64,000 nt of DNA, taken from positions 101,370,001 to 101,434,000 of the forward strand of contig OZ024741.1 in assembly GCA_964016885.1 (NCBI GenBank), read 5' to 3'. The notes under the pieces are model-generated. The model had not been told where the DNA came from. It worked only from the letters and a program-made list of their open reading frames with translations, and searched no databases. Shown one piece after another: positions 4,808 to 39,982 of the stretch. A program made the translations under genes and the position numbers. Every line of letters begins with the position of its first letter. Position 1 is the first letter of the stretch. The stretch is from Eledone cirrhosa (lineage: Eukaryota).

Positions 4808-4867
4808 CAACCAGACGAAAGTTATTCACCAAACTCTAAACAGTATGGTTCAAGGCCTCCATTTCAG
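4808..4867 (+). CDS. Putative 60-nt phase-0 host exon QPDESYSPNSKQYGSRPPFQ
   Basis: Pyrimidine tract + TAG acceptor, 20 open codons, CAG|GTATGT donor. Confidence 0.72.
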
Positions 4868-4976
4868 GTATGTATATATATATATATTTACTTTATATTT
4901 ACTTTTTCATTCTTTTATATATTCATATATATATATTTACTTTATATTTACTTTTTCATTCTTTTTATATTATTAG

Positions 4977-5036
4977 CAACCAGAGGGAAGTTATTCACCA
5001 AACTCTCAACAGTATGGTGCAAGGCCTCCATTTCAG
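4977..5036 (+). CDS. Putative 60-nt phase-0 host exon QPEGSYSPNSQQYGARPPFQ
   Basis: Tandem paralog of the previous exon, with the same acceptor and donor and the frame preserved. Confidence 0.72.
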
Positions 5037-5211
5037 GTATGTATATATATATATTTATATATTTATAGCCCTGTGGACTGGTTATATTTTCTACGATGCA
5101 GGAGTTTTAACAATTATACATTGCTTATTTATACTAGACCGCCGAGTCCATTTCTTTAATCTGAAAAGAGTGTTCACCACAACATATATATATTTGTGTG
5201 TGTTTGTATGA

Positions 5212-5500
5212 CATCATCAATGATCAACATCATCATCACCGTTAAACATCTATTTTTCCATGCTTGCATATATGTTAGACAGCTGTCACATTACATATTC
5301 AAGCCAGACTGATCAGGTGTCTAAGTCCTGCTCATATGCTTTATTTTGGCATAGTTTCTATAGCTAGATGCCCTTCCTAATGCTAACCATTTTATAGTAT
5401 GTGCTGGGAGCATGGTTTCTATGGCTGGATGCCATTCCTAACACCAACTACTTCACAGAGTGTACTGGGAGCATTTTATCATCACTGCGACACTACCACC
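5212..5500 (-). mobile_element. Degenerate RTE-derived short element (3' tail plus two copies of the GGTGTTAGGAAGGGCATCCAGC-like motif)
   Basis: Shows a (CAT)n tail, the ccatgcttgcat 3' stem, and the gatgcccttcctaa motif twice. Confidence 0.6.
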
Positions 5501-5514
5501 TTACATGGTGGACT

Positions 5515-6505
5515 ACATGCTCTCACCACCTCTGTCCATGATTTTTGTGGTCTTCCACTACTGCGTCTTCCTTCTACTGGGAGTTCTTGACACTTCTTTA
5601 CCCAGCGGTCATCCTCCATGCGCATCGCTTCTCCATACCAACGCAATCTTCTCTCCCGCACACTACAGCTTATCCCACTTCTTCTTTTTGTATCTTCGAA
5701 GCATGTGGTTATATGACAGTTTCCCATTTCTTTACACAGTCCTTTGCATTATTATTAAATTTTGCGAGGTCTTTTAAGCTGCACTGGTTGGGTAGTAGAG
5801 GGCAAACAAGGCAGTGCTGCATTGTATGGTCCTCTTCTCCGCATTCGCAGATGGTTTTAGGCCGGTCTTGTAGCCCCATCTGGCCATAGCAGCTTTTGAT
5901 CATCCCATTCCTGTTCTCAGGTGGTTGAGTGTCTTCCACTGGACCCATGGTGCTTCAGAAGTGGGGATTCCCATGTCAATAGGAGAGGAGTTATTCTCTT
6001 GCTTTCTAGTCCATAGTTTCTCTGTCACCTCGTCTATGCCTGGTCGTTCACGCACATTGACATTACACATCCATTGGAGCATGCTTACTTCATTTCTCTC
6101 CCGCCGTCGCATATCCTCCGCAGTTGCTGCCCATGTCTCACTACTATGCAGCATCGTGCATCTCACACAGGCATCATATAACCGGCTTTTCATTTGTAGG
6201 GAGAAACCCTTTGTGAACAGAGGAAGCAGCTCCCTAAACTTCTTCTAACCCCTCCTTATTCTAGATACTATGACCTCGGAACACCCTCCTCCCTTGCTAA
6301 TTTGATCACCTAGGTATCAGAAGCTATCAAACACCTCTATAGATCCTACCTGCATTTGAAAAATGTGTCTATCGCTGCGACTTCTACTGTCAAATTTCCC
6401 TGAACATCAACTGCATATGTAGTTTTCCCTACATGTTAGTTTGCCTGCTATCCCACTACATCTTCTGTGTAACCAAGATCTGCATTGTGTACATTCTATA
6501 GAATT
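5515..6505 (-). mobile_element. RTE family C fragment (3' part of RT); host of the Gypsy and Ingi-like insertions
   Basis: Peptides RLYDACVR..HSSETWAATAEDMRR and RLRWYG..EDDRWVKKCQELPVEGRRS match the copy at 44366-47650. It continues at 15749. Confidence 0.9.
5678..6005 (-). mobile_element. 3' fragment of a different LINE (Ingi/Vingi-like C-terminus)
   Basis: WKTLNHLRTGMG...CECGEEDHTMQHCLVCP (CCHC knuckle)...CVKKW then stop, followed by a short A/AAG-rich tail. It interrupts the RTE-C reading frame. Confidence 0.6.
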
Positions 6506-6888
6506 TGTAGCGCTGTCTAGACAGGGAAGTAGCTAGAGTTACTTCCTGTCGAAAGTCTAGAACCCTCTTTGCAACTTCCGGAAAGAGGATATAAATAGCA
6601 GCAACGCAGTCAGCTCTATCTCTTTTGGCGCCTTCCTTCAAACCAACAACACTGAAGATAAGCATGTTAACTTTTCTCTAACCACCTATCATGGATCTGG
6701 ACTATACCTAATTATGTACGAGAATATTTGTGTACAACAATTATAACATGGAGCTACAATAAAAATGAAGACTTATATTCGATATGGTGTTTTGTAAAAG
6801 ATCTTATTCTTTTCTGTATAAAATTTAGTAGTTAGATTCCGGTGACATTTTCTCGAGTAAATAACCCTGGTTCTAGCAGAACACTAAA
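6506..6888 (+). repeat. Gypsy 5' LTR
   Basis: TGTAGCG...CACTAAA, a direct repeat of 15374-15748 with scattered substitutions and one small indel. Confidence 0.95.
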
Positions 6889-6889
6889 A

Positions 6890-6903
6890 TGGTGACCCGA
6901 CGT
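6890..6903 (+). promoter_or_regulatory. Primer-binding site, tRNA-Trp-like
   Basis: TGGTGACCCGACGT lies immediately after the LTR and is complementary, with one C missing, to the tRNA-Trp 3' end ACGTCGGGGTCACCA. Confidence 0.75.
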
Positions 6904-7165
6904 AAAGAAACACCAACAAAATAAAAAATGAAAATTTCCGGATAAGCATTAAGCATTTCAACAAAGCCTGCGTTTTGTATTCGCCATTTTGCTTCCTCCG
7001 TGTTACATCACTTCAACTATTCATGTTACCACCACGTGCGCATATATTTTTTAAAAAATAACTAAATTTCTTTCAAATGTGTTGTCATTGGCTGATTCAA
7101 GGAAGTTAAACCACATGTGCGGCATTTAAAAAAAAAGAACATTTCACCCGGCGGCTACTACATTC

Positions 7166-7975
7166 ATGATGAGCAATTCTTCGCTACCGACGTATTCAGG
7201 TGATGCAGAGTTGTGGTTTGCACAACTAGATTCGTATTTTGTTGCACATGGCGTCCAAGCGGTACAACAAAGGTTACACGTGCTCATACTCATAAGCGGA
7301 ATCCCTGCCTCGCTCGCCGTGTCAGTAAAAGATATCACAGATACCCCACAAGGCGTCACTTACGAGACCCTTAAGGCAGAAGTGCTCAGACGGAACAGCC
7401 GTTCGTCTGAGAGCAAATTTCGTTCCTTGTTGGAGGAGGAAAACCTGGGAGATAGAACCCCGTCCTAGTTTTATGGCGCATCCGGGAACTGAGCGACTCA
7501 ACAGCAGAGACAACTCTTTTGTAAAACAATTCTTCTTCTCCCGTTTGCCAACAAATGTGCAGACCATACTGGCAAATATAGTCGACACCAGTTCTCTGGA
7601 CCAAATTGCAGCCTCAGCGGACCGCATAATGGAATTTTCTCGAGTACCTACTTTGGCAGATCCACACATTGCTTCTTCTACTTTTAAAGCACAGCCTGTT
7701 CCACTTCGTGAGGACTCTATAATTGAGAGCCATTGACGTGCTAACTCGTCAAGTGACGTCCGCGAAGTCGTTCTCCTTCTTTTCATCGTCGCGCCAATAC
7801 CCCCGCCAACAACTCGTCTTTATGTTGGTATCACGTGCATTTATTGAAAAGGCGAATGATTGTATTCAACCCTGGAGAGTCTGTGCACGGCAGATCTCTT
7901 CCCCATTAATTCTCCTTATCGTGCCTTTTTCATAAAAGATCGAATTTCAAACAAATCGTTTATGGTCGACAGGAT
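7166..7975 (+). pseudogene. Gypsy gag and N-terminal protease, disrupted
   Basis: LPTYSGDAELWFAQLDSYF, LGDRTPS*, FFSRLPTNVQTIL, then FIKDRISNKSFMVD cut at the catalytic D(T)G motif by the RTE-B insertion. Confidence 0.85.
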
Positions 7976-10900
7976 ATCATCATCATCATCATCATCACCG
8001 TTTTACGTCCGTTCTTCCACGCTAGCATGGGTTAGACGGGTTGTCCTGTTGTGTGCAGTGTCTGGTCGGCTGACCATGCCTTGCTCATACAGGAACTGAT
8101 CTGGCTTGATTTCTACAGCTGGATGCCCTTCCTAACACCAACCTCATTTACAGTGAGTGCTGGGTGCTTTTTCGTGGCGCCTACACGTCCACTTTACAGT
8201 GTGGGCTGGGTGCTTTTTTGCCGTGGCACCTCCACGACCACCTTGCGGTGGGGGTGTGTGGGGGCATATTGTTTATATGCTTCAGCATGTACCCATGGGA
8301 GGTCGGGTACTCTGTATTACTGCGTGACGCCAGAAGTCACGGTCGTGTGTCATTGTCTTTGAGAGGTGTAATTGGGTAAGGTCGGCTTTTATCACCTCAT
8401 CCCAGGTCATCTTGGGTCTCCCCACTCCGCGGTTTCCATCAACTTCTAGTGCTCTGCACCTTTTTATGCAGCTGTCATCCTTCATACGCATCACATGTCC
8501 ATACCAGCGCAACCGCCTCTCCTGCAAATAGCATTTGATTCCTCTTATGCTCAGTCTCTCTCTCAATTCATTTATGCTTTGTCGTTCACGTATATTACTG
8601 TTACACATCCATCGGAGCATGCAGGCTTCGTTTCTCTCTAATCTACGTAAGTCTTCCACCTTCAGCGCCCAGGTCTCACTACCATGCAACATCGCTGTTC
8701 GGATACACGCATCATACAGTCTGCCTTTCATTCTGAGGGAGAAGCCTTTTGCAGCTAGCAGTGGTAGTAGTTCCCTAAACTTCTTCCATCCCGTTCTTAC
8801 CCTAGTTATTGTACTTTCTGAACACCCACCTCCGTTGCTAATTCGGTCACCTAGGTAGCAGAAGCTGTCTACTGTTTCTACAGGGCCCTCCCAGAGATTG
8901 GTGGTACTTGTTTCCTGTGGCTGTTTGCTGCTTGCTGTTTCAGCACAGCTGCTGCATGTGAATCCTACATTCTTAATTAAGCTTCCTGAGATCCCGCTAC
9001 ACCTCTTGTGTACCCATTGTTTGCATTTGGGGCAGAGAATGAAGTTCCTACCTACTCCTTTCCTACATACTGAGCAAGGCCATTTCCCTGAGGGGATCTG
9101 GGTTCTGTTTTCTCGTCTACTTACAAGGACCTTAGTCTTTGTCATGTTGACTTTGAGACCCTTTCTCTCTAGTCCCTGCTTCCAGGTTTGGAATTTATTC
9201 TCTAGTTCTACTATAGATTCAGCTATGAGTGCGAGGTCATCAGCATACAGGAGTTCCCATGGGCATCCGGTCTTAAACTCCTCCGTTATTGCCTGCAGAA
9301 CTATGATGAACAGGAGAGGGCTAAGAACAGAGCCCTGGTGGACCCCAACCTGTACGCTAAATTCCTCGCTATACTCATTGCTAATCCTAACTTTGCTGAC
9401 TGCTCCCCTATACATGGCTTGTACCGCTTTCACAAGCCATTCATCTACTCCTAGTTCTCTAAGAGCCCACCAGATTACAGCACGTGGAACTCTGTCAAAG
9501 GCTTTCTCAAGGTCGACAAATGCCAAGTAGAGTGGCTTACTTTTAGCTAGGTACTTTTCCTGTAATTGCGTCACAAGGAAGAGGGCATCAGTGGTGCCTC
9601 TTCCTGGTACAAACCCAAATTGCATCTCGTCTATATTCACCCGGTCCCTAATCAGCTGTGCTATAACTCTTTCTGTTACTTTCATGACCTGGTCCATCAA
9701 CTTTATACCTCTATAGTTTCCTCTATCTAGTGCATCGCCTTTACCTTTGTAGCAGTTGACAATGATGCTACTGCACCAATCTTTTGGTATGGCCCCTTCT
9801 AGTATTACCTGGTTAACGATACGTGTGGTTATAGTGTGACCTACAGACCCAGATGCCTTCAGCATCTCGGCAGCTATACCCGATGGACCGGTTGCCTTCC
9901 CCATCTTCATATCTTTGATTGCCTTACTTACTACGCTGCTGCTGACTTGTACTGCTGGTCCCTCTATAGGGTCTACTTGGGGTAGGGTCTCTTCTTCCCA
10001 TGCATTCTCCTCATTTAGTAATCTATCATAATGACTCTTCCATGCATATTTCTTCTCAGCACTTGTGAGGGAAAGCTCACCTTTATCATTCCGGATACAC
10101 TTCTCTCCAATGACATCGCAACTATCTCTGACACACTGCCTCGCAATCTTGAATACCTCCTGTTTCTGGTCCTCACGTTGTAAAACATGCTTGAATTTTC
10201 TATCCTCTGCTTCCCTCCTAGCTAAGTATACTTGTCGCCTAGCTTCCCTCTTGGTCTCTATGTAATGTACCCTGCTCCCCTCGTTCTTCCATTCTTTCCA
10301 TGCCTGTCTCTTGGCCTTAACTGCTTCATCTACCTTATTGTTCCACCACCAAGTCACTCTCCTCCTGCTTGAGGTCTTACTCCAGCCACAGACCTCATCC
10401 GTCGCCTCTAGTAAATTATTTTTTAGGAACTCCCAGTTCTCTTCTACGTTAAATGTCTCTATCTGTTCTTCTTTACTGTTGTAGGCGTTGAGTAAAATAT
10501 CTTTAAATCTGTTACTGGTTGAGGGGACTTTCAGCTTCCAGATCTTTCTTCTCCAGGTTGGCCTCTGTTTCCGGGTTCGTCTAGTTCTGACCGTGAGGTC
10601 GCTGACAACTAAGCTATGTTGGGATGTACATTCCTCACTAGGGAAGGCTTTTGTGTTTACGATCTGTCACGTCCTCTGATGAGGATAAAATCTAACTGAC
10701 TAGAGTGCTCCCCTGATCTATAGGTGATCAGGTGGTTGTCGGGTTTTTTAAAGTTTGTGTTACATATCGACATGTCATTGGCGTCGCAGAATTCTAGAAG
10801 TCTGAATCCTTCCTCATTCCTTGTGCCAACTCCATGGCCTCCATGTACTCTATTGAAGCCGTCGCAGTGTTTATCTACGTGTCCGTTAAAATCTCCTGCG

Positions 10901-12058
10901 ATGATTAGGAAGTCCTTGTCGTCTGTTAGAGCAGTAGTGTGTATTAGGGACTCGTAAAACCTATCCTTAAGTTCGTCTGGCAGCCCCGATTGGGGTGCGT
11001 AAGCTGATATTATTGTGGTAATTGTCTTATTCAGGACTAGTCTGAGTTTAATGATTCTTGCATTTACCCTGTACACTGAGATTACTTTATCTACCCACTT
11101 GTCAGCTAATAGTATACCTACACCACCCATCCCATCGTCATTTCCCACCCAGAAAAATTTGTAGCACTGGCTTTTTCCTACAAGGACTAGTCTCTTGCAC
11201 ACAGCATACATCAACTTACTTTCGCTCTAGCATTTCTAAGATTTCTCCTGCTCTTCCTTTCATTGAGCCTACATTGATGGTACCAACTCAGAGTTTTGGG
11301 CATTTGTCGACACTCGTAGGGGAGGGTCTCTGGGTTGGCGCTTCACGTGGGTGCTTGGTAGCTCGCAGATTCATATTTCATCTATTGATTCAGAGTTGCT
11401 CAAATGTATTCTCAGCTCATCCATCCATAACGGTGGGAAAATTGAGGGCTAGAAGAACAGTGGTGGTGGGGTAGTGGCAGGGTGTGTTCGGCTGCGCCAG
11501 AGGAGGAGAGAGTTAGTTAGGTAGGTAGTAGCAGCAGCAGCAGTGGAAATGGCATGCTGAGGTTTGATTGGTTGAATCGGCTATCGTGGTGTGTGGGGGT
11601 GGGTGGGAGGGAAATTGTGAGGTAGGCACTGAGGGTCGCATGGTAAATAACCGAGAGAGATACAATATAATTAGAATACCGCATGGTAAATATCCAAGTT
11701 AATACACCAGTAAAATTAACAATAATAACGTCATGAAAACTACTAAGAAACCTTCGAAAATTTATCGATAATACAGCAGGAAAACAGCATTAATATTAAC
11801 AACAATATATAGACTAAAATACCTTCGAAGATTAGTATGGATGGATGGCTGGAACGAATTGAAATCAACTCTAATGATACATTTTAGCAGATAAGGGGAA
11901 AAGTGTCTTGTCTCTTCAAAAGTTTGAGAATGAATGAGGTTCGATAGGTTAGAGATAGGGTAGTAATCCTAAAGAGAGGCATAGAGAGGGGGGGAGGGGG
12001 TAGGCACTGAGGGTCGCATGGTAAATAATGAGGTTCGATAGGTTAGAGATAGGGTAGT
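7976..12058 (-). mobile_element. RTE family B, near full-length, inserted in the Gypsy protease
   Basis: ORFs 8282-10357 (RT, YADD) and 10657-11214 (APE), a (GAT)n tail at 7976, and a 5' region with internal direct repeats. Confidence 0.95.
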
Positions 12059-15000
12059 TGGCCCCTTCGTTTCAGCTGTACCAAGCCAAATTTTTCCGGT
12101 ATTTCCTTGTAACCAGTCTCCTATAAAAACTTATGGACAAATATCTCTATCATTGGACCTAGCTTTGCATCGGGATTTCAAATGGATTTTCGTTGTAGCG
12201 GACCTACCCCACCCTATTCTCGGTGCGGATTTTTTACACCACTACTCACTGTTAGTAGATGTCAGGAAACAGAAACTTGTGGATGGCACCACATCTTTAT
12301 CTACACCTGCTCGTGGTTCTACTGTTGCCACCATAAGTCTCGGGTGTTTCATAGCTGCCTCTGGAAACCAGTTTCATTCCCTTCTTGCCTCATTTCCCGA
12401 GTTAACTGACATTTCATTTAAACCGAATCAAGTAGTCCACTCGACTCAACATTTTATTACAACAACTGCTCCGCCTGTTTTTTCTTGGCCACGTAGGCTG
12501 GCTCCAGACAGGCTAAAAAAAGCCAGGGATGAGTTTGATCACATGCTTCAACTTGGTCTTATACGACCGTCCACCAGCCCATGGGCCTCCCCGCTTCATT
12601 TGGCTCGTAAGGGTGAAGCAGATTTTAGACCTGTGGGTGATTATAGACGACTTAACGTTATCACAACACCTGATCATTATTCTCTACCAAATTTACAGGA
12701 TTTTTCATCCGTTCTGCATGGATGCAAGATATTTTCTAAAATAGATTTGGTACGCGCTTACTATCAAATACCCATGCATCTGGAAGACATACCAAAAACA
12801 GCTGTGACCACCCCTTTTGGTTCGTTTGAGTTCCTATCCATGCCTTTTGGTTTGAGGCATGCTTCTAGTACGTTCCAGCGTTTTATCGATGAAGTCACAC
12901 ATGGATTGGATTTCGTGTTTGCTTACGTTGATGATTTCCTGATAGCCAGTGATTCGGATGAACACCATCATCAACATCTATCTCAGTTATTTCAACGTCT
13001 CCAATCGTACCAAGACAGAATCAACCCAGCTAAATGTGTGTTTGGTGCAGATTCACTGGAATTCCTCGGACACCTTATAGATTCAGAAGGCATTCGTCCT
13101 TTGCCAGCTAAAGTAGAGGCGATTCAGCAATTAGCATCACCAACATCCTTGAAACAATTACGCCATTTTTTAGGATTAATTAACTTTTATTGTCGCTTTA
13201 TTCCTAACCGTGCGGATAAGTTATTCCCCTTGACACAGTTTTTAAGAGCTGCAAAAAAGAAAGATGAAAAAATTTCACTTTCTGCCGATGCATTGCAGTC
13301 TTTTAAATCCGTCAAGTCTGAGCTATCTAAAGTTTCCTTCCTTGCCCATCCTGTTGCAAATGCGAGACTTTCCTTATCTGTTGATGTATCTGATAGTGCT
13401 GTTGGCGCAGTTTTGCATCATGTAATCGTTCACCAAGTTCAACCATTGGCATTTTTCTCTCGCCAATTAAAACCAGCAGAACAGAGAAACAGCACCTTTA
13501 ACAGAACTTTTGGCGATTTATCTTGCCGTGAAGCACTTCCACCACCTTTTGGAGGGGCGGGAGTTCACGATATTCACGGACCACAAACTGTTAACATTCG
13601 CTTTACAATCCAAGTTCGACAAGTACTCTCCGAGAGCGTATAGGCATCTGGATCTCATCTCACAGTATACCAGTGACATTCGTCACATAGCTGGAACTTC
13701 CAACATACCTGCAGACGCACTATCTCGACTTTCTGTGTGTTCTCTTGCGTCTCCTGCACATATCGATTTAGTTGCCATTGCAACTGACCAACCTACTTTG
13801 GATTCGCTGGACATTTCCTCTGACCAGTTCTCCTGCTGCAAATTGGAATATTTACCTCTTCCATCTTCTGAAGGGAAAATTCTCTGCGATGTTTCTACTG
13901 ACTCACCCAGACCACTTGTTCTCCTTGTCACATCCTGGCACAGCTGCCACGGTGAAGCTTATTACGGCTCGATTCTTCTGGCCTAATATGCGTCGTTTAA
14001 TCATCGGTTGGGCACGTTCTTGCTTGAAGTGTCAGCGCTCTAAGATTCATCGGCATGTCCGCGCTCCACTTGGGAAATTCAGCCCGCCAGACACACATTT
14101 CCATCATATACACATGGATATTGTTGGTCCATGGCCCGTTAGTTGTGGATTCACATACATATTGACTTGTATCGATCGTTTCTCTCGGTGGCCTGAAGCC
14201 ATACCCCTCATGGACATAACAGCAGACTCCGTTGCCCGAGCTTTCATTTCCAATTGGATTGCTCGTTTCGGTGTTCCTACTAAAATAACTACGGATCGTG
14301 GATGCCAATTTGAGGCTTACTTATTTCGTGAAATATTACGACTCTTGGGTGCTCATCACATCCATAAGACCAACTATCACCCAGCCTCCAATGGAATGAT
14401 CAAGTGGATTCATAGACAGTTGAAAGCTGCACTTCGCGCTACTCCTGATCCACAACGTTGGACTGAATTTTTGCCTATCTTGCTTCTTGGTTGTCGTGCT
14501 GCCATTAAGACAGATTTAGGTTTTTCTTCTGCTGAACTTCTTTATGGTACCACATTGTCTCTTCCTGGACAAATGTTAGCACCAGTGGATTCATCACATC
14601 TTGACCCAGCATCATATGTCACCAGGATCCCTTCGTATTTCTCGGATCTTCCACCGATGAACCCTCGTGACCAATCTATTTCTTCTGCTGTCCCATCAGA
14701 CATCTCTACGTGGACACACATTTTCATATGGAATGATTCCGTCAGGGGACCTCTTACGTCACCTTATAATGGACCTTTTCGTGTGCTATCGCATACACCC
14801 AAACATTTCACAGTGGCTGTCAATGGGCGAAAAAAGACAATATCCATTGACAGAGCAAAAAAGGCTTTCTCCGAAAGTCTCATCACACTGCCTGATACAC
14901 CTCATACATACACTCCTACACCAACACTTTCACCTCCACCGCAAACGCCACATACCACACAACCAACCTTATGTCACACGAGGTGGCAGGACGGTAAAAT

Positions 15001-15145
15001 GGCCACGAAAACTCTCAAAAACAATATACATTTAAACCCCAGTGGCATTAACATACCTCTTCTTTTTCAGTTTTCAGATAGAACTAGTGTCAGAAAAGTC
15101 TGTACACTAGTTATGTATGAACTATTTGACTTTGAAAAACATTGA
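12059..15145 (+). pseudogene. Gypsy pol (rest of protease, RT, RNase H, integrase), frameshifted
   Basis: ILGADFL, SPWASP, DYRRLN, YVDD, FLGH, TDHK, ADALSR, HMDIVGP, IDRFSRW, TDRGCQF and GPF motifs across ORFs 12153-13643, 13510-13986 and 13772-15145. Confidence 0.95.
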
Positions 15146-15373
15146 TTTTACCATTGAGCATCAATATTCTCTGCTCCTTTGTATGACTATGATTTATCAT
15201 TCGTTACATTCAAACATTCTTTGTAAAAATGCATTACTTGGTTTATGCTCATTTTGCTATTTGCTTGCTCATGTTTTATTCATTCATGTTCTTGTACCTT
15301 TTGTTTTGCTCCTCATGTTCTCGCTATAATGATTTCATTTGGTCATTCGACTTCTCGTCTGAGAGGGAAGTCT

Positions 15374-16000: not shown

Positions 16001-16004
16001 TCTT

Positions 16005-16381: not shown

Positions 16382-16389
16382 TTCAATGC

Positions 16390-16900: not shown

Positions 16901-16964
16901 ATCAATAATTGCACACTACATCTCATTCCTCCTATACACAGTTTTTCTTTCAGCTCATTTCTAG

Positions 16965-27265: not shown

Positions 27266-27296
<31 letters not shown>

Positions 27297-27359: not shown

Positions 27360-29793
27360 TACCCAAGATCTGCATTGTGTACATATTGTAGAATTTATGC
27401 CAACTCCTTTTCTACATATCGAACAAGGCCATTTCCCTAACGGAATCAGAGTTTTGTCCTCTTTTCTACTTATCAACACTTTTGTCTTAGCTAGGTTCAC
27501 TCTCAGTCCTTTTGATTCCAACGGCTGTTTCCATAGCCAGAATTTATTCTCTAGCTCCTCTACTGATTCTGATATAAGAACCAGATTGTCAGCATAGAGA
27601 AGTTCCCATGGGCAACCAGTCTTAAACTCCTCTGTTATGGCTTGGAGAACTATAATGAACAAGAGTGGACTGAAGACCGAAACCTGATGTACTCCTACTT
27701 GTATCTGGAATTCCTCACTAATCTCCATTCCTACTCTCACTTTACTGACAGCACCTCTGTACATAGCTTGCACTGTCTTCACAAGCCATTCCTCTACACC
27801 TAGTTTTCTTAGGGACCATCAGATGACAGATTGAGGCACTCTATCAAAGGCCTTCTCTAGGTCAACAACAGCTCAGTATAGTGGCTTATTTTTCTCTAAG
27901 AACCTCTCTTGTAGTTGTCTCATTAAGAAGAGGGCATCTGTTGTACTCTTCCCAGCCACAAAACCAAACTGCATCTCATCTAATTTTGCCCTTTTTCTAA
28001 CTAGTTGCGCTAGTATTCTTTCTGCCACTTTCATAACCTGATCCATCAGTTTTATGCCCCTATAATTGCTCCAGAGCATCCCCTTTACCTTTGTAGCAAT
28101 TTATAAGAATATTGCTGCACCAGTCTTTGGGTACGACTCTGCCATATATAGCTTGATTGATGATGCGTGCAACCTGTTTAGTTCCTACTTCTGATGCCTT
28201 CAGCATCTCAGCAACTATCCCTGACAGTCCAGCGTCGTAACCATTTTTCATTTCCTTAATTGCCTCTTTGACCCTATAGTTGTCAATCTCAATTATCAAT
28301 CTGTCGGGTCTACTGGGGGTAGTTTCTCTCTCTCCCATTCATTCTCAACATTTATCAGTCTCTCATAATGACATTTCCAGGCATCCTTTTTCTGAGCCAC
28401 AGTGACACTAAGTGCACCAGCGTCATTTCAGACACACTTATCTCCAACAACATTCTGATTTACTCTGACACACTGCCTTGCAATGTGGAACACCAACGTC
28501 TCTGATCTTCTTGTCGCAGAACATTGGCAAACCTCCTACTCTCGGCTTTACTGCGTGCTAAGTACACCTGATGTCTAGCCTCTCTTTTAGCGGCTGAGTT
28601 TCGGTCTCTACTCCCACCATTTTTCCAAGCATTCCATGCCTGTCTTTTGTCTTTAATGGCTCTGTCTACCGTGTTGTTCCACCACCAGGTCACCTTGTCT
28701 GGTTGGAGCTCAGCTCCAGCCACAAGTTTCTTCAGTAGCCCGCAGTAAGTTGTCATGTAAGAAATTCCAGTTATCATCTATACCATACGATTCTAACTTG
28801 TCTTCTTTTTCTTCATACATATCTTGAAGAGCTTTCCTAAATTTATATTTTAGTGAAAGGTCTTTTAGCTTCCAGACCTTCCTTTTCCACACCTTCCTGT
28901 GTGTCTCATTTTGTCTTTTGCTTATTGAGATGTCACTAACAACTAACCTATGTTGGGGGGTATATTCTAACTAGCAAGAAGTCAATCTGGCTTCTGTGCT
29001 CGCCTGATTGGTAGGTTATTAGGTGGTTGGTAGGTTTCTTGAAGTTAGTGTTGCAAATGGTTAGTTCACTTGCATCACAAAATTCAAGAAGCCTCACTCC
29101 TTCGTTTCTTGAGCCATAACCATCCTTCTCTTCTTTACCTAGGCCCGCTTGGGGAGCATAGGTAGAGATAATTGTCAGCAGTCTATTTCTTACAATTAAT
29201 CTAATCTTAATTATTCTATTACTGACTCTAACTACCTCTATTGTCGTATTGATCCACCTCTTGGCCAGTAAAATGCCTACCCCACCTAACCCATCATCAT
29301 TTCCTACTCAGAAAAGCTTATAGCTAAGCTGTTTGCCTGAGATTAGTCTTGATGAGGCACCACTCCATCTCACCTCTTGCAAGCAGCACACATCCACGTC
29401 TTCTCTCTAGCATCTCCACCATCTCACCAGATCTACCTGTCAGGGTGCCAACATTAAGTGTGGCAACCCTGAGATGCGATGTTTTTTGTTATTTCTTCCT
29501 TTTCTGCAAAGAAAAATTGTTTATAATCATGTTGTTGTGCGATTACTTAATGACGATCGGGGGGTTCTCACACATGGCTGCACCAGCCACCCCACTACCG
29601 TGCGCAGCCTTAACATGGTTAGTGTTATTGCTGTTTATGCAGTTATTGCGATATATATTTGTTGGTGTGCTCATAATTTTTTTGGCATTAATATACTGGT
29701 TGGATGCCCTTCCTAACACCAGCACCACTTTACAGCATGGACTGTGCTTTTATTTGTGCCACCAGCACTAGAGAGGTTGTCTTACTGGACTCA
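27360..29793 (-). mobile_element. RTE family C, degenerate, 5' end present
   Basis: APE and RT fragments (27357-27782, 27873-28079, 28060-28338, 28460-28892). The 5' UTR at 29690-29793 is homologous to 44396-44500. Confidence 0.92.
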
Positions 29794-29846
29794 GTATTTG
29801 TATATATGTACGTGTTTAATCTAATTATTTCTTGTATTGTTATCAG

Positions 29847-29945
29847 CAAAAGTATCCAACAGCAGGTCGACGCGGTTATCATGAACAACATAATACAAAT
29901 ACCCGATATTATTCCAGGCAATCGAATTTCAGATCAACTAACACT
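29847..29945 (+). CDS. Putative 99-nt phase-0 host exon QKYPTAGRRGYHEQHNTNTRYYSRQSNFRSTNT
   Basis: CTAAT branch point, T-rich tract, CAG acceptor, 33 open codons, perfect GTAAGT donor. Confidence 0.75.
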
Positions 29946-30464
29946 GTAAGTATATTAACATCTTTAATTCATTTATATGGATTGTCATTTTAAAGTCAAG
30001 TTTCCATCTTAAAAATAAGTCATAACTATCTAACAATGTAATAAATTAGTATCATCATACTTTTTACCCTTTTGATATGAAACTGCCTGAAACCACTCCT
30101 GGTTTGACAATACAAAATTGCTTATTTTAAAGTGTAAAAAAAAAGAAAAGGAAAAATCTTCCACTCTAATTCTATGTAAGAACCTTTGTTAAGTTATGTT
30201 CCAAACAGCAATTTAATAATAACAATGGTAGTGATATTATTAAATCTTTACATATGCAAGAGTAGTAGAAAACAATTTGTCAAGGTGCCATGCAATGGGA
30301 CTGAATCTAAAATCATGTGGCTGTGAAGCAAACTCTTTAACAACACAACCATGTCCTTGTGCCTGTGTGTGTGTGATGCCACCAAAGTCAATTGCAATGG
30401 AACCGAACCCAAACTTAACCTCAAATCGTGATTGTAAAACAAACATGCATTTCTACCTATATAT

Positions 30465-31300
30465 ATAGTAACCAGGGTAAGAATGGGATGGAAGAAGTTC
30501 AGGGAGCTACTATCATAGCTAGCTGCAAAAGGCTTTTCCCTCAAAATTAAAGGCAGACTGTATGATGCGTGCATATGAACAACAATGTTGCATGGTAGTG
30601 AGACTTGGGCGTTGTGTCCAGAAGACTTGCGTAAATTAGAAAGAAATGAAGCTTGCATGCTCCGATGGATGTGTAATACTAATATACACGAACGGCAAAA
30701 TATAAACGAATTGAGAGAGAGACTAAGCATAAGAGGAATCAAATGCTGTGGGCAGGATAGGAGATTACGTTGGTATCGACATGTGATGCGTATGGATGAC
30801 AGCTGCATAAAAAAGGTGAAGAATGCTCAAAGACGATGGAAGCCTTGGAGTGGGGAAACCCAAAAAGACCTGGGATAAGGTGATAAAAGCCAATCTTGCT
30901 TAATTGCATCTCTCAAAGATGATGACACAGGACCGAGACCTTTAGCGCCACACAGTAATACAGAAGACCCAACTTCCCGTGGGTACAAGCCGAAGCTGAA
31001 GTATATATACAGTATGCCCCCCTCCCCTCCCACTGTAAAGTCGTGTAGGTATCACAACAAAAAGCACTCAGTCTACATTGTAAAAGGGTCATGTAGGCAA
31101 CACGACAAAACCACCTAGTACTCACTCTAAATGAGGTTGGTGTTAAGAAGGACATCCAGCAGTAGAAATCACGTCCAAATCAGTTCTGTATTAGCAAGAC
31201 ATGGTCACCTGACCTGACATTGTCCACAACAGGACAAATTGTTTAACACATGCTAACGTGGAAAAATAGGCATAAAACTGATGATGATGATAATGATGAT
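30465..31300 (+). mobile_element. RTE family B-like 3' fragment, old
   Basis: MLHGSETWAL..LERNEACMLRWMCN, a B-type 3' UTR and a (GAT)n tail. Confidence 0.88.
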
Positions 31301-31458
31301 ATATATATTTATATATATATTTATATATATTAGAAAGTGTTGGGGCCCAATGGCTGAGGTCTGGCCGTTTCAGTAGCTAATTCCAGTCAAACTCTACTAT
31401 CCCATGTATTTAGTATTCTGCTGAATAATGGTCTTATTAGTTTAAAACTGGTAAAATC

Positions 31459-31519
<61 letters not shown>

Positions 31520-31521
<2 letters not shown>

Positions 31522-31652
31522 ATTGTTTCTACTTTTGACACAAGGCCAGCAAATACCCAGTGTATTACTGGTACTTTATTTTATCGACCCCGTAAGGATG
31601 AAAGGCAAAGTTAACCTCGGCGGAATTTGAACTCAGAATGGAAAGGGCCGTA
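31520..31652 (-). mobile_element. SINE fragment with Nin/Deu-like central domain
   Basis: Minus strand GAGTTCAAATTCCGCCGAGGTTAACTTTGCCTTTCATCCTT..GGGGTCGATAAAATAA..GTACCAG. Confidence 0.65.
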
Positions 31653-31974
31653 ACTCTTTGTGTCAAAGCATGGCGTATTTATACTTATATATGAGTTATA
31701 TATAATTATAAATATTATTAAGCACTACCCAATTACCAGTAAGAGAAAAAGCTCAATGTAAGTTATCCAATGTATTACAGAGCAGAGATACATGAGTTGG
31801 ACAAGGATATGATGTAACTATTCTAATAGTTATATCATATCCTTGCATGTCATAAGAAGTGACTAAAAGGATTAGCAGTTTTAAAACACTGCTTCAAAAA
31901 GCCTTGTCCAACGTATGACAGCATGGAAAAGTTAATGTAAAGATGATGGTGATGATGATATTTATATATACATA

Positions 31975-34230
31975 TATGAGGAAGTGTGTAGAGCTGTCAA
32001 CACTACACGAGCTCATAACATCGTGCTTGTTCTGGATGACTTCAATGCACATCTGAGTAAGGAGAGCAGTAAAGATCCTTGCTAGTACTTCCATAACAAC
32101 ACCAATCAAAACGGAAGACTACTGAGGGACAACCTGCTGGAGGCGAACTTGATGGCAACCAACCTATGGTTTAGGACGAATCCGGGGAAGATGTGGACCT
32201 ACATCTCTGATATGCACCTGTCCAAGTCCCTGATTGATTTCAGTACACTGGGCAGTGACCACCAGCTTGCTATGAATGAGGTCTGGATGAGCTTAAGAAA
32301 GAGTAAGGCTTAGCCCCAGAGAGTGATCTATGATTGGGGAGCTTTCAAGGAAGATGATAAGCTACAGGAGAAGTGAGGAACAGGTTCAGTGCTCTTTGTG
32401 GAGAGGCAGAGGAGAGAGAGATTGGAGGGACTGAGGAGGTACGGATACTTCACCAATGCAGTGGTAGAAGCAAGTGAGGTCCTGGTGCTGAGGAGAGAGA
32501 AGAGGAAGAACGTCAGCTCTGCAGACCCAAAAGTGTGTGCGGCCAGAGAACACCTGAAAGCTGGCAAGGAACAATTCTATGCTGAACCTACGGAGGAGAG
32601 GAAGGAGAACTTGAAGGTGATGAAGGAAGAACTCTGTACCACTTACATTGAGGCCAGAAAGGAAGCGCTGATAGAGAAGATGAGAAGTGTGGAGAGAGTG
32701 GTTGACAGGCGTAGGTGTAAAGAGAGCTGGATGATCATCAATGAGATCACTGAGGAAGAGAGGGAATTCAAGTCAGATCCAGGGAACAGGGCTCGAGGAT
32801 GGGAAGAGGATATGGCTGGACCATTTTAAGACTCTACAAGAAGAGCCGCCTTCTACAGCCCAGAACATTGGGGAGATCAGACAGCTGTTTGAGGAACTGA
32901 TATTGAGACAGGACCCTTCACCAGAGAGGAGCTTCAGAGTGCTAGGAAGAAGATCAAGGAGGGCAAGGCCCATGGAGAAGATGGAGTGGCATCAGGGGTG
33001 ATGAAGAAGTGTGATTTTGATGATATCATCCTGGAGTTCTGTAACCAGGCACTGGAGAAGGGAGTTGCCCTGGATCAGTAACATTGTCCCAGTGCCAAAG
33101 AAAGGATATCTCTCTAACACCAACAACTACAGAAGGATCTCACTGACGTCACTTGTGGCAAAGACCCTCAACAGGATGATTTTTAATAGGATCCAGCCCA
33201 ATGTGGAGAAGAAGCTCAAAGACAACCAGAACGGCTTCAGAGAGAGAAGATCAACCACCAGTCACATCCTAATGTTGAGGAGAATTTTAGTTGGAGCTGG
33301 AGCCTCCCTGCTGTTATGGTTTTCATTGACTTTAGGAAGGCCTTTGATTCGGTGGACTGTCATTGGCTCCCTATCTTTTCATCATCGCAGTGGACTATTA
33401 TATGCGCCTTGTACTGGAGAAACACCAGTACTCTGGCTTTACTGTAGCACTGGCGCAGAGCAGGAGAGTTAAGGCTAGAAAGATATTAGATGCTGACGAC
33501 ATAGTTCTGGTGACAAACACACAGTAAAGGAGGCAGAGGAGTTGATGTAGGAGATGGAAACTGTGTCGATGAGTATGGCGCTGAGAATGAATGAGAGTAA
33601 GACGAAGTATCTGGTAGAGAACATTAAGGCAGAGAAGATTATAAATGTAGGCAGGAAGCCGCTAGAGTTGGTTGAGGACTTCCTGTATCTGGGAGCAAAA
33701 TTGGGAACACACAGGATGATGTAGTTGAGAGAAAGAGCAAAGACTGGGCGGCGTGCCACAGTTTGAGGTTGGTGTGGAAGTCGAACCTTCGGAAAGACCT
33801 GAAGACCTGTCTCTTCATTGCTACAGTGGAGTCTGTGCTGCTGTACGGATCTGAGACTTGGACACTGACCAAGAGACTCACTCAGATGGTGGATGGGTGC
33901 TACACAAGAATGCTGAGGATGGCTCTGAACATTAATCAGAATTCAGAGCTGTACGGGAGCCTCCCAAAAGTCAGCTTGAAAGTAGCACAGAGGAAACTGA
34001 GGTTAGCCGGACATACCGATATTCAGAGTTGACACTGCACTTAGTGGTCCTGTGGGAGCCCCTACACAGACACACTAGAAGAGGGAGACCAATGATAACA
34101 TATATTGATGCTCTAAGGACAGACACTGGTCTCTGGGAGATGCAGGATGTGGCAGCGATGGTGAAGGACAGAGACTGCTGGAGAGAACTCATACATGGAT
34201 CTCGGGAATTTTACCCGCCATAGATAGATA
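31975..34230 (+). mobile_element. Degenerate RTE-clade LINE of a distinct family (D)
   Basis: DFNAH, GSDH, NNYRRISL, NQNGFR..RSTT, DFRKAFDS, VESVLLYGSETW and GRP motifs, ending in (TAGA)n. Confidence 0.85.
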
Positions 34231-34250
34231 TTAAAGTTTATGTATATATA

Positions 34251-34476
34251 TAGTTTATATTAGAGTTTATAAACTTAACATGTATGTGCAACCTTAGGTT
34301 TCAGGGCCCAGTTGTGGTTACCACTGTGTAGTGGAGTAGTGGTTCTAAAACTGGCCTCCCCCGTCAGGTGCAAAACAATTTGAACCACTACTCTACTATA
34401 CAGTGTTAGCTATAATTAGACTAAAAAACCTAAGGTTGCGCATACATGTTAAGTGTATGAACTTTAATATAAACTA
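34251..34476 (+). repeat. Long imperfect hairpin, 95-bp arms and 36-nt loop
   Basis: 34251-34345 pairs without gaps with 34382-34476. Confidence 0.85.
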
Positions 34477-35075
34477 AATAAGCTCTCTTGTATTAGATTG
34501 AGTTCTTTTAATTTTTATCTCTGAATAACCTGCATATACATACATTTATATATATACTTGTACGGTTGTATCATCATCATTACTGATTAATGTCTATTTT
34601 CCATACTTGCATCGGTTAGACAGCTTTTGCATGCCCAACTTCCCTTGATAGCCTAAAAGAAGGGATGTTTATATACTGCTTGGAGCCAGTTGGTAGGTGG
34701 ATAGTGCCTGTCATTTTGTGGTGTGCCAGGCTTTCCTAGGTTGGTTGGGAAAATATTGGGGACACTGATTCAATAGGGAAGGTGAATCTGCCAAGGTTCA
34801 TCCTAGCTTTCTATGCTTGCATAGTTCAAACAAAGAGGTCATGCATATACTAGCAAGTGAGAGCCTGAGAGTGGTTCTATTTCTCTGCTTCTTCAAATTT
34901 AAACTGGGTGGGTGGGGGATGTTCAGAGGCATGCTAACTAAGAATCCAGGAGTATACTGGTAGGGGGTAGGTGTGACCCTAGTGTTGTACACCTCTCTGC
35001 TTCAGAATTTTGTATGTATGTATTTATATATATGTATATATTTAATCTAATTAATTTTTGTATTGTTATCAACAG

Positions 35076-35165
35076 CAGTATCAAACAGCAAGTCGAGGCA
35101 ATTATGATACATATACAAATAGCCAACCTTATCCAAGACGTTCTAATCACAGATCAACTGACTCT
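35076..35165 (+). CDS. Putative 90-nt phase-0 host exon QYQTASRGNYDTYTNSQPYPRRSNHRSTDS
   Basis: Diverged paralog of 29847-29945 with a homologous upstream intron (tttaatctaatta...tgtattgttatc), a CAG acceptor and a GTAAGT donor. Confidence 0.75.
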
Positions 35166-35490
35166 GTAAGTCACACTCTATTATTCCATGTATTGGGTAT
35201 TCTGCTGAATAACGGTCTTACTAGTTTAAAACTGGTAAAATATATATATATATAGTCTATCACATGAGAGACTGTATATATATAGTCTATCACATGATAG
35301 ATTATATATATATATATAAATATATATAATCTATCATGTGATAGACTATATAAACCCATGCTAGCATGGAAGATAGACGTTAAACGACGATGTTGATGAT
35401 GATGATGATGATGATATATATATTCATATCTATATGTTAAATATAGATATAAATATATATATATGTGTGTGTATATATATATTTATATAT

Positions 35491-35523
<33 letters not shown>

Positions 35524-38500
35524 GTCCCTGTTCCACGCTTGCATGGGTTTGGACGGGGGTTTTCCCACTTGAGGCAAGAGTGGTTGTCTTGCTCGCATAG
35601 GACTGTCTGGCAGGTTTTCTACAGCTGGATGCCCTTCCTAACACCAACCACATTTACAGTGTGAGGCTGGGACGTTTTTACCGTGTTGCCTACACGGCCA
35701 CATTACAGCGTGGACTGTGTGTTTTTTTGTCGTGACACCTACACGATCTCGTTTGTTTCGGCCTGGATGTTGTGGCACCAACATAACTTTGCATTGAAGG
35801 GGGCGGTGTGGATGGGGTGGGACGGGGGTGTATTTTGTTAGAGATGCCTACTGACTAGTAGGTTTTACTTTGTGTTTAGGTAAGGCGGGTCTTCTCTGTT
35901 ACTGAGTACCGCCAAAGGTCTCGGTCCAGTGACATTGTCTTGGAGAGGTGTAAGTGTGTGAGGTCGGAATTTATCAGCTCGTCCCAGGTTTTCCTGGGTC
36001 TGCCTACTCCGTGGCTACCATCTATCTTTATTGCCCTGCACTTTGTTATACAGCTGTCGTCTTTCATGCGCATCACGTGACCATACCAACGTAGCCTTCT
36101 CTCGAGTAAATAACATCTGATCCCTCTTATTTCTAATTTTTTCCTTAGTTCGTTTATGCTTTGCCGTTCACGTATATTACTATTACACATCCAGCGGAGC
36201 ATGCAAGCTTCGTTCCTCTCTAGTCTGCGTATATCCTCTGCACACAGTGCCCAGGTCTCACTGCCATGCAACATTGCTGTTCGTATGCAGGCATCATACA
36301 ACCTGCCTTTCATTTTTAGGGAGAACCCTTTAGCGGCTAATAGTGGTATAAGCTCTCTGAACTTTTTCCATCCAGTTCTGACTCTAGCTACTGTACTTTC
36401 AGAGCACCCTCCCCCACTGCTGATTTTGTCACCCAGGTAACGGAAGCTGTCCACTATTTCTATAGAACCCTCTGCGCAATTGAAAGAGCTAGTATTCTGT
36501 GGGCACTTGCTGCTACTTATTGCACCAGAGCACTGGCCACATGTAAAATCTGTGTTCTTAGTTAGCTTACCTGTGATCCCACTACATCTTTTATGCACCC
36601 ATACTTTGCATTTGGGACATAAAATGGAGTTTCTACCTACGCCTTTCCTACACACTGAGCATGCCATTTCCCGGAAGGGACCGGCGCCTTATTTTCTTTC
36701 CTACAAACTAGAACTTTAGTCTTAGCCAGGTTAATTTTAAGGCCTTTTGATTCTAGGCCATGCTTCCATGTTTGGAATTTCTTCTCTAGCTCGGCCATTG
36801 ATTCAGCTATGAGCGTTAGATCATCTGCGTATAGGAGTTCCCATGGGCAGCCGGTCTTGAACTCCTCTGTTATAGCCTGAAGGGCAATAATAAATAGTAG
36901 GGGGCTAAGAACAGAGGCCTGATGGACACCAACTTTTACGCTAAACTCTTCACTATATTCGTTGTTAATTCTAACCTTGCTGACTGTTTCTTTATACATG
37001 GCTTGTATGGCTCTCACAAGCCATTCGTCAACACCTAGTTTTCTAAGAGCCCACCAGATAATGGAACGGGGGACTCTGTCGAAGGCCTTCTCCAAGTCGA
37101 CAAAAGCTAAGTATAGGGGTTTACTTTTAGCTAGGTACTTCTCCTGTAGTTGTCGTACAATGAAAAGAGCGTCTGTGGTACTTTTGCCTGACACAAACCT
37201 GAACTGCATTTCATCTAGATCAATTCTCTCTCTGATTAGTTGCGCTATTACTTTTTCCGTGACCTTCATGACCAGGTCGATTAATTTAATGCCTCTATAG
37301 TTACTCCTATCTAGGGCGTCTCCTTTACCCTTGTAACAGTTAACGATGATGCTGCTACGCCAGTCCTTCGGAACAACCCCATTCTGTATGACTTGGTTTA
37401 CTATCCGGGTGACCATGGTGTGTCCCACCGTACCGGAGGCTTTCAGCATCTCAGCAACTATTTCCGAAGGCCCAGCCGCCTTACCCGTCTTCATATCTTT
37501 GATTGCCTTACTTATACTACATTCGACTAACACTGCTGGTCCCTCTATTGGATCGATGTGGGGGAGGCTGTCTTTCTCCCATTTATTCTCCTCATTTAGT
37601 AGCCTTTCGTAGTGACACTTCCAAGCTACCTTCTTATCAGCGTCAGTGATGGCAAGTACGCCATCATCGTTAAGTACACACTTCTCCCCGACAATATCAC
37701 GGTTTTCCTTGACACATTGCCTAGCAATCCTGAACACCTCACGTTTTTGGTCCTCGCGTTGTAGAACATGCTTGAACTTTCTTTCCTCTGCTTCCCTTCT
37801 TGCGAAGTACACTGGTCTCCTAGCTTCCCTCCTGGCCACTTGATAGTCTTCTCTACTTCCCCCATCCCGCCATGCTTTCCAAGCTTGCTTTTTGGCCTTG
37901 ATTGACCCCTCCACCTTACTGTTCCACCACCATGTTACTCTCCTCCTGCCTACAGGCCTGCTCCAGCCACAGACTTCGTCTGCCGCCATCAGCAGGTTTG
38001 CTTTCAGGAATTCCCACTGTTCCTCTACCTTGTACGACTCTAATTGCTCTTCCTTACTGTCGAAAGCATCAAGTAATATTCTTTTAAATTTATTTCTGGT
38101 TGTGGGGTCCTTTAGCTTCCATATTTTTCTCCTGAGGATAGTCCTCTTCTGCTGTCTAGTACGTCTCGTCCTGACTATGAGGTCGCTAATTATCCGTCTA
38201 TGTTGGGAGGTGCATTCTTCATGGGGGAGGGATTTAGTGTTTACAACAGACACTCTGTCACGTCTTCTGGTAAGGATATAATCTACCTGGCTGGTATGTT
38301 CTCCTGATCTGTAGGTGATCAAGTGATTGTCTCGTTTTTTGAAGTTAGTGTTACAGATAGTTAGGTTGTTCGCATCACAGAATTCCAGGATTCTGGAGCC
38401 TTCCTCGTTTCTAGTTCCAAACCCATAGCCTCCGTGGATTCCGTCATAGCCGTCACAATGTTGTCCAACGTGACCATTTAGGTCACCAGCAATAATTATA

Positions 38501-39340
38501 TAGTCACTGTTGGTTATTTGGGAGGTAGTGAGCATCAGTGTCTCATAGAATCTGTCTTTTATAGCGCCAGGCAGTCCGGATTGGGGCGCGTATGCAGATA
38601 TTACTGTCACAGTAGTTCTGTTTAGAACAAGTCTTATTTTAATTATTCTGTCATTCACTCTATTTACATCTATTATCTTATCCACCCATTTTTCTGCTAA
38701 CATGATTCCTACCCCACCTATCCCATTGTCATTCCCCACCTAGAAAAGCTTATAGCAGAGTTTTTTACCCACAATGAATCTAGCAGACCCGCCCCTCCAC
38801 CTGGTCTCTTGGATACAGCAAACATCAACCTCCTTACGTTCAAGCATTTCTACAACCTCGTTAGAGCGGTTTTTTAAGGTGCCTACGTTCATGGTACCAA
38901 CTCTGAAGTTTTGGATTGTGTTTGGAGGATGGGGCGCAGGGAGGGGTGGGGGGAATGAGTTTGGGGTCCGCGGCCGAAACAAAGAGGGGGGGGGGGCCTT
39001 GCCCCTTCGTCCGGCAGCATGAGGTGAATTTGTCGTTATCTTTGGCATTGTCATCGAGTGTCCAGATTCTTCAGACTCTCCAGAAATTCCTTAGTCCATC
39101 CATCATATCGAAAAGCAGCCAGTAGTGATAGCATAGGCCGTTGACTCGTGATTGGTGCAAATAGTAAAGGTGGAGAGTGGGGGTGGGAGGGAGTGATATG
39201 GGGTAGTTAGCAATGAGGGAGATTATTTAGAACCAGCGTGGAGAAGATTAATTTAAAGCAACAATAGCAACGATTGTAGATATATATGGATGAATGAACG
39301 AGGTTTTAAGGAGACAAGAAGAAAAAACATTATTTGCCAG
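35491..39340 (-). mobile_element. RTE family A near full-length copy with divergent 5' part
   Basis: ORFs 38740-39054, 36637-38739 and 35876-36667 (one stop, one frameshift), and a (GAT)n tail. The 5' boundary is approximate. Confidence 0.95.
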
Positions 39341-39546
39341 CTAAATTAACTATAGGGATATAAAATATACAGAAGCGAAAACCAATCCCAACTAAACAGT
39401 GAGTGTGTTTTATTATTATTTCTGGCAATGTTATAACAATATGACCCTCCCCAAATATAACAATATTTTGTTTCAACACACGATTTTATATTGAAAACCT
39501 TGCAAAATAAATTCATCGCCATATATATATATATATGTATATAAAG

Positions 39547-39878
39547 GGACATGGCTTAGTGGTTAGAGCATTGGCCTTGAAATCGAAAGGTTATGAGTTC
39601 AATTCTCAGACCGGGTGATGTGTTGTTTCCTTGAGCAAGACACTTTATTTCACATGGCTCCAGTTTGCTCAGCTGTAGAAATGAGATGATAGGGACTGGG
39701 GTCCATATCATTCTACTGCAAAGTGGTCGTGGAGGTGCCACGGAAAAAAAGCACCCAGCACTCACTGTACATGAGGTTGGTGTTAGGAAGGGCATCCAGC
39801 TGTAGAAATCAAGCCAGAATCAGTTCCCATCCCACCCTTTCAAGCAGTGAAAAGTGGACATAAAAGGATGATGATGAT
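39547..39878 (+). mobile_element. Full-length tRNA-derived SINE (CORE/Meta-like middle, RTE-derived 3' half)
   Basis: A/B boxes, TCCTTGAGCAAGACACTT core, GGTGTTAGGAAGGGCATCCAGC motif, RTE-C-type tail and (GAT)n. Confidence 0.9.
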
Positions 39879-39927
39879 ATATAAAAACAGTACTGTACAA
39901 GTCATTCAAAGAATCTATGTATTCTAG

Positions 39928-39982
39928 CAGTTTTCTATGTTAAACAAATGAGATACTGATTTGTTCAAATCGATTTGAATTG
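39928..39982 (+). CDS. Possible stop-containing host exon (QFSMLNK*)
   Basis: TTCTAG acceptor, starts with a Gln codon like the phase-0 exons, TGA at 39949-39951, GTGAGT donor. Confidence 0.35.

Follow-up and report, generated by a model that had tools for sequence, protein, structure and literature searches.

Introduction

TRPT1 (Tpt1/KptA, PF01885) removes 2'-phosphates from RNA and ADP-ribosylates the 5'-phosphate ends of RNA, as described in two papers (PMC9458441 and PMC10415124). According to the former, RNA with an ADP-ribose cap resists XRN1 and goes untranslated; for PARPs, a connection with stress granules was proposed. Animal tRNA splicing leaves behind no 2'-phosphate, and mice without the enzyme show no phenotype. 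We have analysed a 64,000-nucleotide stretch of the Eledone cirrhosa genome (contig OZ024741.1, positions 101,370,001 to 101,434,000, forward strand; the window) with six short, repeated segments. We consider it likely that these are coding exons of a long octopod TRPT1 and that they encode most of a disordered N-terminal tail, with predicted granule recruitment.

The predicted protein has the domain, the fold and the four catalytic residues in common with human (7yw3) and mouse (7yw2) TRPT1, but these have about 250 residues against about 770 here; the additional parts are a tail of low complexity, a linker rich in K/E and an exonuclease-like domain. Long molluscan TRPT1 records are alike in architecture and tail composition, and those of octopods are orthologous; the tail here is, however, about twice as long as those of Octopus sinensis, O. 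bimaculoides and Argonauta, its exons are visibly duplicated, and the sequences can barely be aligned. The exonuclease-like domain of the long molluscan forms resembles in profile the Egalitarian EXO domain and EXD1 (DEDDy), but is here fused to Tpt1 and the first acidic motif is absent. Egl and EXD1 bind RNA via the exonuclease fold, catalysis not being needed, according to 10.1101/2025.08.03.668247. Disordered modules built from duplicated symmetric exons are already known; those described in PMC3632108, which are in human genes, share phase symmetry, disorder and internal tandem duplication with the present tail, which by contrast belongs to an enzyme and whose growth can be traced stepwise through transposon-rich introns. 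The exon mechanism and the enzyme family are known, whereas the molluscan architecture is apparently unpublished. Neither the order tail, Tpt1, linker and exonuclease-like domain nor an octopod clade of short paralogues was found in the literature searched, outside which most subscription journals lie. The locus is a clean record of a disordered tail growing exon by exon, and a lineage in which the enzyme is fused to a prion-like tail and a probably RNA-binding, exonuclease-like fold, and in which the tail is duplicated again and again, offers a concrete test of protein location and of capped RNAs.

The repeated segments

The six segments (Table 1), all on the plus strand, are preceded by AG and followed by GT, are open in frame 0 and start with a Gln codon; their lengths are 60, 60, 60, 60, 99 and 90 nt. 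The original prediction had described them, and its coordinates, splice dinucleotides, lengths, frames and first Gln codons were all confirmed. The four 60-nt copies represent only two sequences (type a at 4808 and 22441, type b at 4977 and 24483), because a 6.5-kb block has been duplicated at 99.4% identity. Types a and b lie in tandem at a distance of 169 bp; the four changes between them are all non-synonymous. The donor at 22500 is GTATCA, with a hand-set score of 5.2 as compared to 11.1 for the other three 60-nt donors; it is weak because a LINE has inserted 4 nt behind this exon. In-frame inner acceptors at 4844, 5013 and 24519 would turn 60-nt exons into 24-nt forms.

A third long copy, of 93 nt, is located outside the window at 107528-107620 (L015:3528-3620). 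The acceptors of the three long copies lie 6, 3 and 0 nt before a shared Tyr codon, every one in frame, and length differences among exon copies are multiples of 3. The tail exons are phase 0-0 and homologous to each other along with their intron flanks; between the short and long types, no BLAST link exceeding 8-9 nt was found. The original prediction had the protein growing by exon duplication. Phase-0 symmetric exons have indeed been duplicated, but a single segmental duplication, not separate exon duplications, accounts for half of the 60-nt copies.

A 31-nt exon pattern (up to two mismatches) matched four times in the 2,996-Mb genome, each time inside the window (control, 0), and the long exon matched only itself, the 93-nt copy and one sequence at E 7. 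The exons are therefore no dispersed repeat, a reading under which the original prediction would have fallen; the matches are confined to this locus. No further decayed copies were detected by nhmmer across 264 kb. A splice filter with hand-set scores, run over 143 kb, passed eight plus-strand and five minus-strand candidates; all eight on the plus strand are exons under study or their in-frame 24-nt parts. Splice scores alone are a weak case for the exons. None of the four tail exons scanned has a Pfam match. When the 99-nt exon was compared with 1.84 billion representatives, the sole match was a repetitive Aeromonas protein, which was dismissed as chance.

The host gene

The original prediction had placed the window in a hidden host gene whose product it did not recognise and thought possibly structural. 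The gene was found, with its domain in frame downstream; the product is an enzyme, the long octopod TRPT1, as identified by the PF01885 match, by tblastn to the orthologue and by the tree. The TRPT1 domain and the 3' exons are located 45-95 kb beyond the window, the splice-site scan of the flanks giving plus-strand exons from 108994 onward. All four exons tested match consecutive parts of PF01885 (Tpt1/KptA) in order; one of them, the longest, passes the cut-off by itself. The exons at 118645 and 121152 complete the domain; the latter, sixth exon has no Pfam match alone, yet aligns to the orthologues. A first search, with one domain exon, had returned oyster and snail proteins only.

The first domain exon (108994) starts in phase 0 and lies 1.4 kb past the 93-nt copy, its nearest upstream exon candidate; it contains no start codon. 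At the other end, the ATG exon at -3354 is the likely start of the gene. The model from this exon to the linker exon has 406 codons and no stop, and extended through the 3' exons it is open for 757-759 codons; none of the 128 subsets of the seven tail exons brings in a stop. The sequence and phase of the exons, their restriction to one locus, the open model, the orthology of the gene and the likeness of the exons to orthologue tails in composition are established, and splicing of the exons into TRPT1 mRNA is very probable. Every intron here is phase 0, so that local and segmental duplications add whole exons with the frame intact; duplication and skipping of exons would both pass without a frameshift.

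The catalytic residues, equivalent to R40, H41, R86 and R150 of the human enzyme, are intact (SILRH, KQRF and GRNH); the numbering follows PMC10415124 and the alignment to 7yw3. The NAD+ motifs HxT and NxV are present as HGT and NHVIL; by hand count, GRNH is 20 residues beyond the HGT His. A 200-N assembly gap (133320-133520, L017) lies inside the gene between the linker and K/E-rich exons, so an exon could be missing there.

Table 1. Features of the window and its flanks. For coordinates outside 1-64000 (extended), the genome position on G000:C2 is 101,370,000 + coordinate.
Feature	Position	Strand	Remarks
Window, inside 5' part of long TRPT1 gene	1..64000	+	splicing predicted from sequence
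Candidate ATG exon, 36 nt	-3354..-3319	+	ATG ATG in AAA-ATG context
60-nt exon type a, QPDESYSPNSKQYGSRPPFQ	4808..4867	+	splice sites, open frame, genome pattern search
60-nt exon type b, QPEGSYSPNSQQYGARPPFQ	4977..5036	+	tandem copy of type a
60-nt exon type a, second copy	22441..22500	+	identical to 4808; donor weakened to GTATCA
60-nt exon type b, second copy	24483..24542	+	identical to 4977
99-nt exon, QKYPTAGRRGYHEQHNTNTRYYSRQSNFRSTNT	29847..29945	+	
90-nt exon, QYQTASRGNYDTYTNSQPYPRRSNHRSTDS	35076..35165	+	aligns with O. sinensis TRPT1 residues immediately N-terminal of domain
Six Tpt1 domain exons	starts 108994, 109830, 111571, 112794, 118645, 121152	+	
Linker exon	126977-127060	+	
K/E-rich exon	140276-140854	+	
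Exonuclease-like exons	starts 142026, 147948, 154465	+	last exon uncertain
Second unit of head-to-tail segmental duplication	15997..27643	+	first unit -1617 to 15996
LTR retrotransposon in first unit	6505-15748		contains parts of reverse transcriptase (RT), RNase H and integrase; 93% identity between LTRs; LINE nested within
Truncated LINE	22503..24389	-	in short intron between second pair of 60-nt exons
NOP53 and EndoG-like nuclease gene	L007:5442-5624, L006:6082-6177, L004:7308-8760	minus	

Orthologues and the low-complexity tail

Long proteins with a Tpt1 domain occur in O. sinensis (607 residues, XP_029643220.1), O. bimaculoides (641, XP_014768469.1), Argonauta (601, GAB1601401.1), Sepia (793), many bivalves (for example Ostrea, XP_056020546.1) and a chiton; the records with accessions given here are uncharacterised. 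Searched with tblastn along the orthologue, the locus matches the octopod long forms across domain, linker and C-terminus. Identity is 63-69% to these forms and 44-51% to the short octopod forms. In a tree of 34 rows, hand-chosen among the search matches, it falls in a clade with the long forms of O. sinensis, O. bimaculoides and Argonauta (100/99).

Spliced together, the exons would give a disordered N-terminal tail of about 180 residues, rich in Q, S, Y, P, R, N and G. The fraction of QNSYGRP in the seven exons is 0.75, that of hydrophobic residues 0.05 and that of Tyr 0.10; the tails of the three octopod orthologues have 0.77-0.81, 0.05-0.06 and 0.10-0.13. A low-complexity tail N-terminal of the domain is present in each of the 14 long forms examined from molluscs (QNSYGRP 0.62-0.81), and in seven of them it contains an adjacent internal repeat of 73-100% identity. 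The O. bimaculoides tail has a perfect 21-residue repeat and the Argonauta tail a 22-residue repeat, both near in length to the 60-nt exon, which would encode 20 residues. The O. sinensis protein as modelled by AlphaFold (mean pLDDT 62.8, pTM 0.36) is disordered at residues 1-64 and 274-433, the first of these stretches having pLDDT below 50. This composition and the low pLDDT of the orthologue lend support to a low-complexity, disordered module, as the original prediction had supposed.

In-frame cassettes of the N-terminal tail separate NCBI isoform models in Ostrea (48 residues) and Dreissena (30, 39 and 57 residues), and in Magallana such cassettes occur in four of the seven models compared. 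These bivalve gene models show combinatorial splicing of the tail; for the exons described here, where the original prediction had suggested it, it may occur, as no exon subset brings in a stop.

The C-terminal domain

The O. sinensis model has two folded parts. Foldseek places Tpt1 structures first (E 1e-19; human 7yw3, mouse 7yw2); the entries listed next, ranks 22-40, are chains bearing a 3'-5' exonuclease (best E 8e-5), the best fold matches being the exonuclease of the apicoplast polymerase, Rrp6 and RNase D. When 31 long forms were combined into a profile, it matched the Egalitarian EXO domain (9uju_C, E 2.5e-12) and EXD1 (5fis, E 2.2e-9). PF01612 is matched weakly by two of the 31 forms, and Atlas gives PF01612 at 0.88 and 0.91. 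In the column assigned by eye to motif I of the DEDDy family, the Asp of D-x-E is found in none of 11 rows and the Glu in one. The octopod domain did not match a profile of 26 non-octopod rows under E 0.01, and hhalign of the octopod and bivalve domains gave E 0.089, with one of 20 shuffles scoring higher. Long molluscan TRPT1 appears to carry a previously undescribed DEDDy exonuclease-like C-terminal fold in which, by eye, the first catalytic motif is missing.

Predicted role

The prion-like SYGQ/RGG domains of the FET family combine S/Q/G/N sequence with spaced tyrosines and RG pairs, adjoin RNA-acting domains and recruit to granules. The tail here likewise has a Tyr every ten residues among S/Q/G/N, RG pairs and a position beside domains that act on RNA, but it is richer in Pro and Arg and there is no RRM or zinc finger; the likeness is one of composition, and no sequence homology is claimed. 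By analogy, the tail would recruit the enzyme to RNA-rich granules, the catalytically degenerate exonuclease-like domain would probably bind RNA, and the Tpt1 domain would move phosphate ends of RNA to NAD+, either removing 2'-phosphates or capping 5' ends with ADP-ribose. Such an RNA-granule enzyme is proposed because of the literature on capping by TRPT1 and on RNA binding by Egl and EXD1. It is the least supported step of our explanation, and we put it forward tentatively.

A further-reaching version would make molluscan TRPT1 an enzyme of germ granules or of the piRNA type, which unites in one chain a prion-like tail, a domain that ADP-ribosylates RNA and a pseudo-nuclease that binds RNA like Egalitarian and EXD1, its tail being tuned by repeated, independent duplication and cassette splicing under adaptive pressure, together with the retrogene expansion in octopods. 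This we consider doubtful.

Use of the exons

It may be that the mRNA includes only one or two copies, for example the 93-nt exon with one of 60 nt, and that the rest are skipped as decaying duplicates whose frame is still intact. The tails of O. sinensis and O. bimaculoides have only 72 and 98 residues, the donor at 22441 is damaged, pN among the copies (0.26) is not below pS (0.15), and in a simulation of neutral decay all three long copies remained open with P 0.16-0.20, as such a view would have it. However, at a divergence of 23-26% all three still have GTAAGT and an acceptor in frame, which is less easily explained: open frames together with a retained GTAAGT had P 0.015-0.019 in the simulation (joint P <0.02). 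The multiples of 3 also argue against decay, and bivalve and chiton tails reach 166-514 residues. We therefore regard skipping of most copies as rather unlikely.

Several points weigh against our reading of the segments as TRPT1 tail exons. Their splicing at this locus is inferred from sequence. The exons at 35076 and 107528 scored under the cut-off of the splice filter, with low acceptor scores (6.1 and 3.0), and the donor score at 22441 is low as well (5.2). The intron 35165-107528 would span 72 kb, and the scan of low-copy ORFs between the upstream neighbour NOP53 and the domain covered 27 of 67. Homology of the exons to the orthologue tails is weak, despite the alignment of exon 35076 with the O. 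sinensis residues abutting the domain (p 0.006): three of 45 exon-by-species tests gave p <0.05, none of them for the 60-nt exons. The X1/X2 isoforms of O. bimaculoides and X1-X3 of Liolophura are identical within the tail and differ elsewhere. Localisation and phase separation are predicted from composition and low pLDDT.

Divergence of the exon copies

The exons at 29853-29945 and 107528-107620 differ at 22 of 93 sites, 19 non-synonymous and three synonymous. Divergence of the exon copies is no slower than that of their own flanks, and selection seems to keep the frame, the splice sites and the composition and not the sequence. The tail exons could be under diversifying selection in a host-transposon or host-virus conflict, with duplication supplying new variants. 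The downstream introns of the 29847 and 107528 exons differ at only 12 of 283 sites (Fisher P 2e-7 against the exon), the excess of non-synonymous changes is seen again between 60-nt types a and b, and the genome holds intronless Tpt1 paralogues at five places. Against this, the upstream flanks of the long exons differ at 7/46, 7/53 and 9/46 sites (13-20%), close to pS, so that gene conversion in the downstream intron would account for the contrast just as well; conversion is likely in a nearby block (0.35% against 4% within one unit). The difference between pN and pS carries little weight, as there are only about 20 synonymous sites. Positive selection on the tail exons is suggested as a lead only, and we judge diversifying selection by conflict improbable on balance.

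Segmental duplication

The stretch -1617..4871 matches 15997..22504 with 23 mismatches and six gaps in 6,508 columns, and the 60-nt pair is one tandem pair doubled by this segmental duplication. At 15997 a LINE piece is joined to the start of the unit with a 4-nt microhomology and no gap. Other pieces of the unit (5038-5134 with 27266-27362; 15750-16000 with 27393-27643) are 96% identical, and each unit later gained its own transposon insertions. Because identities within the unit are mixed, the sequence suggests an older duplication that was partly homogenised afterwards. The second pair might instead be an artefact of the assembly, in which two haplotypes were joined one after the other, leaving only two real 60-nt exons; the divergence of the matched block is at a level compatible with alleles. 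This is very unlikely given the gapless head-to-tail junction within a LINE, the 4% divergence of the other pieces, and the different insertions of the two units, one of them the LTR element. Three runs from one sample, which behave as genomic DNA, contained no piece bridging the junction among those listed.

A second tandem duplication, of 12.2 kb at 99.2%, lies in the 5' region of the same gene (-30837 to -6495, L007-L010); no convincing coding exon was found inside it. A tandem array of about eight 510-bp units of about 99% identity occupies 53216-57246 of the window. Pieces of a PIF1 helicase, probably of a Helitron (L011:4614-6423), are located within the 72-kb intron.

Neighbouring genes

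Upstream lie NOP53, on the minus strand with its start near -34400, and then the EndoG-like nuclease. NOP53 and TRPT1 are head to head, so a shared promoter is possible. Of the 67 low-copy ORFs in the interval from NOP53 to the domain, 27 were scanned; eight of these match Pfam families, all of transposon type, and no family of another type was found. That the exons form a separate small gene or a non-coding transcript between NOP53 and TRPT1, which the long distance to the domain might favour, is highly improbable, as a member of the long-exon family lies 1.4 kb before a domain without a start codon, the scanned stretches showed no further host gene, and the orthologues have such a tail. Just beyond the 3' end is an exon candidate of another gene (163435-163762, L020, minus strand).

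Tpt1 paralogues

Elsewhere in the genome are three complete Tpt1 paralogues that lack introns and have open frames, at G000:C21:15650858-15651379 (L023), C21:15636400-15636918 (L021) and C3:57850107-57850625 (L024). They fall in an octopod short-form clade with Octopus and Argonauta (100/99) and are likely old retrogenes, by their sequence. The idea that they are retrocopies retaining the spliced tail was rejected, since the tail is absent and the clade is separate. In the C3 paralogue, four 18-residue repeats in one open frame make up a separate N-terminal tail (L024:5035-6009, minus strand), which parallels the exon-built tail of the long TRPT1. Between two full paralogues sits a 303-codon frame with three tandem N-terminal halves of Tpt1 and no NAD+ half (L022:1294-2202, minus strand; G000:C21:15639333-15640115). 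A further intronless copy, at G000:C14:40371707-40372217 (L025), is matched in two adjacent pieces, apparently in different frames.

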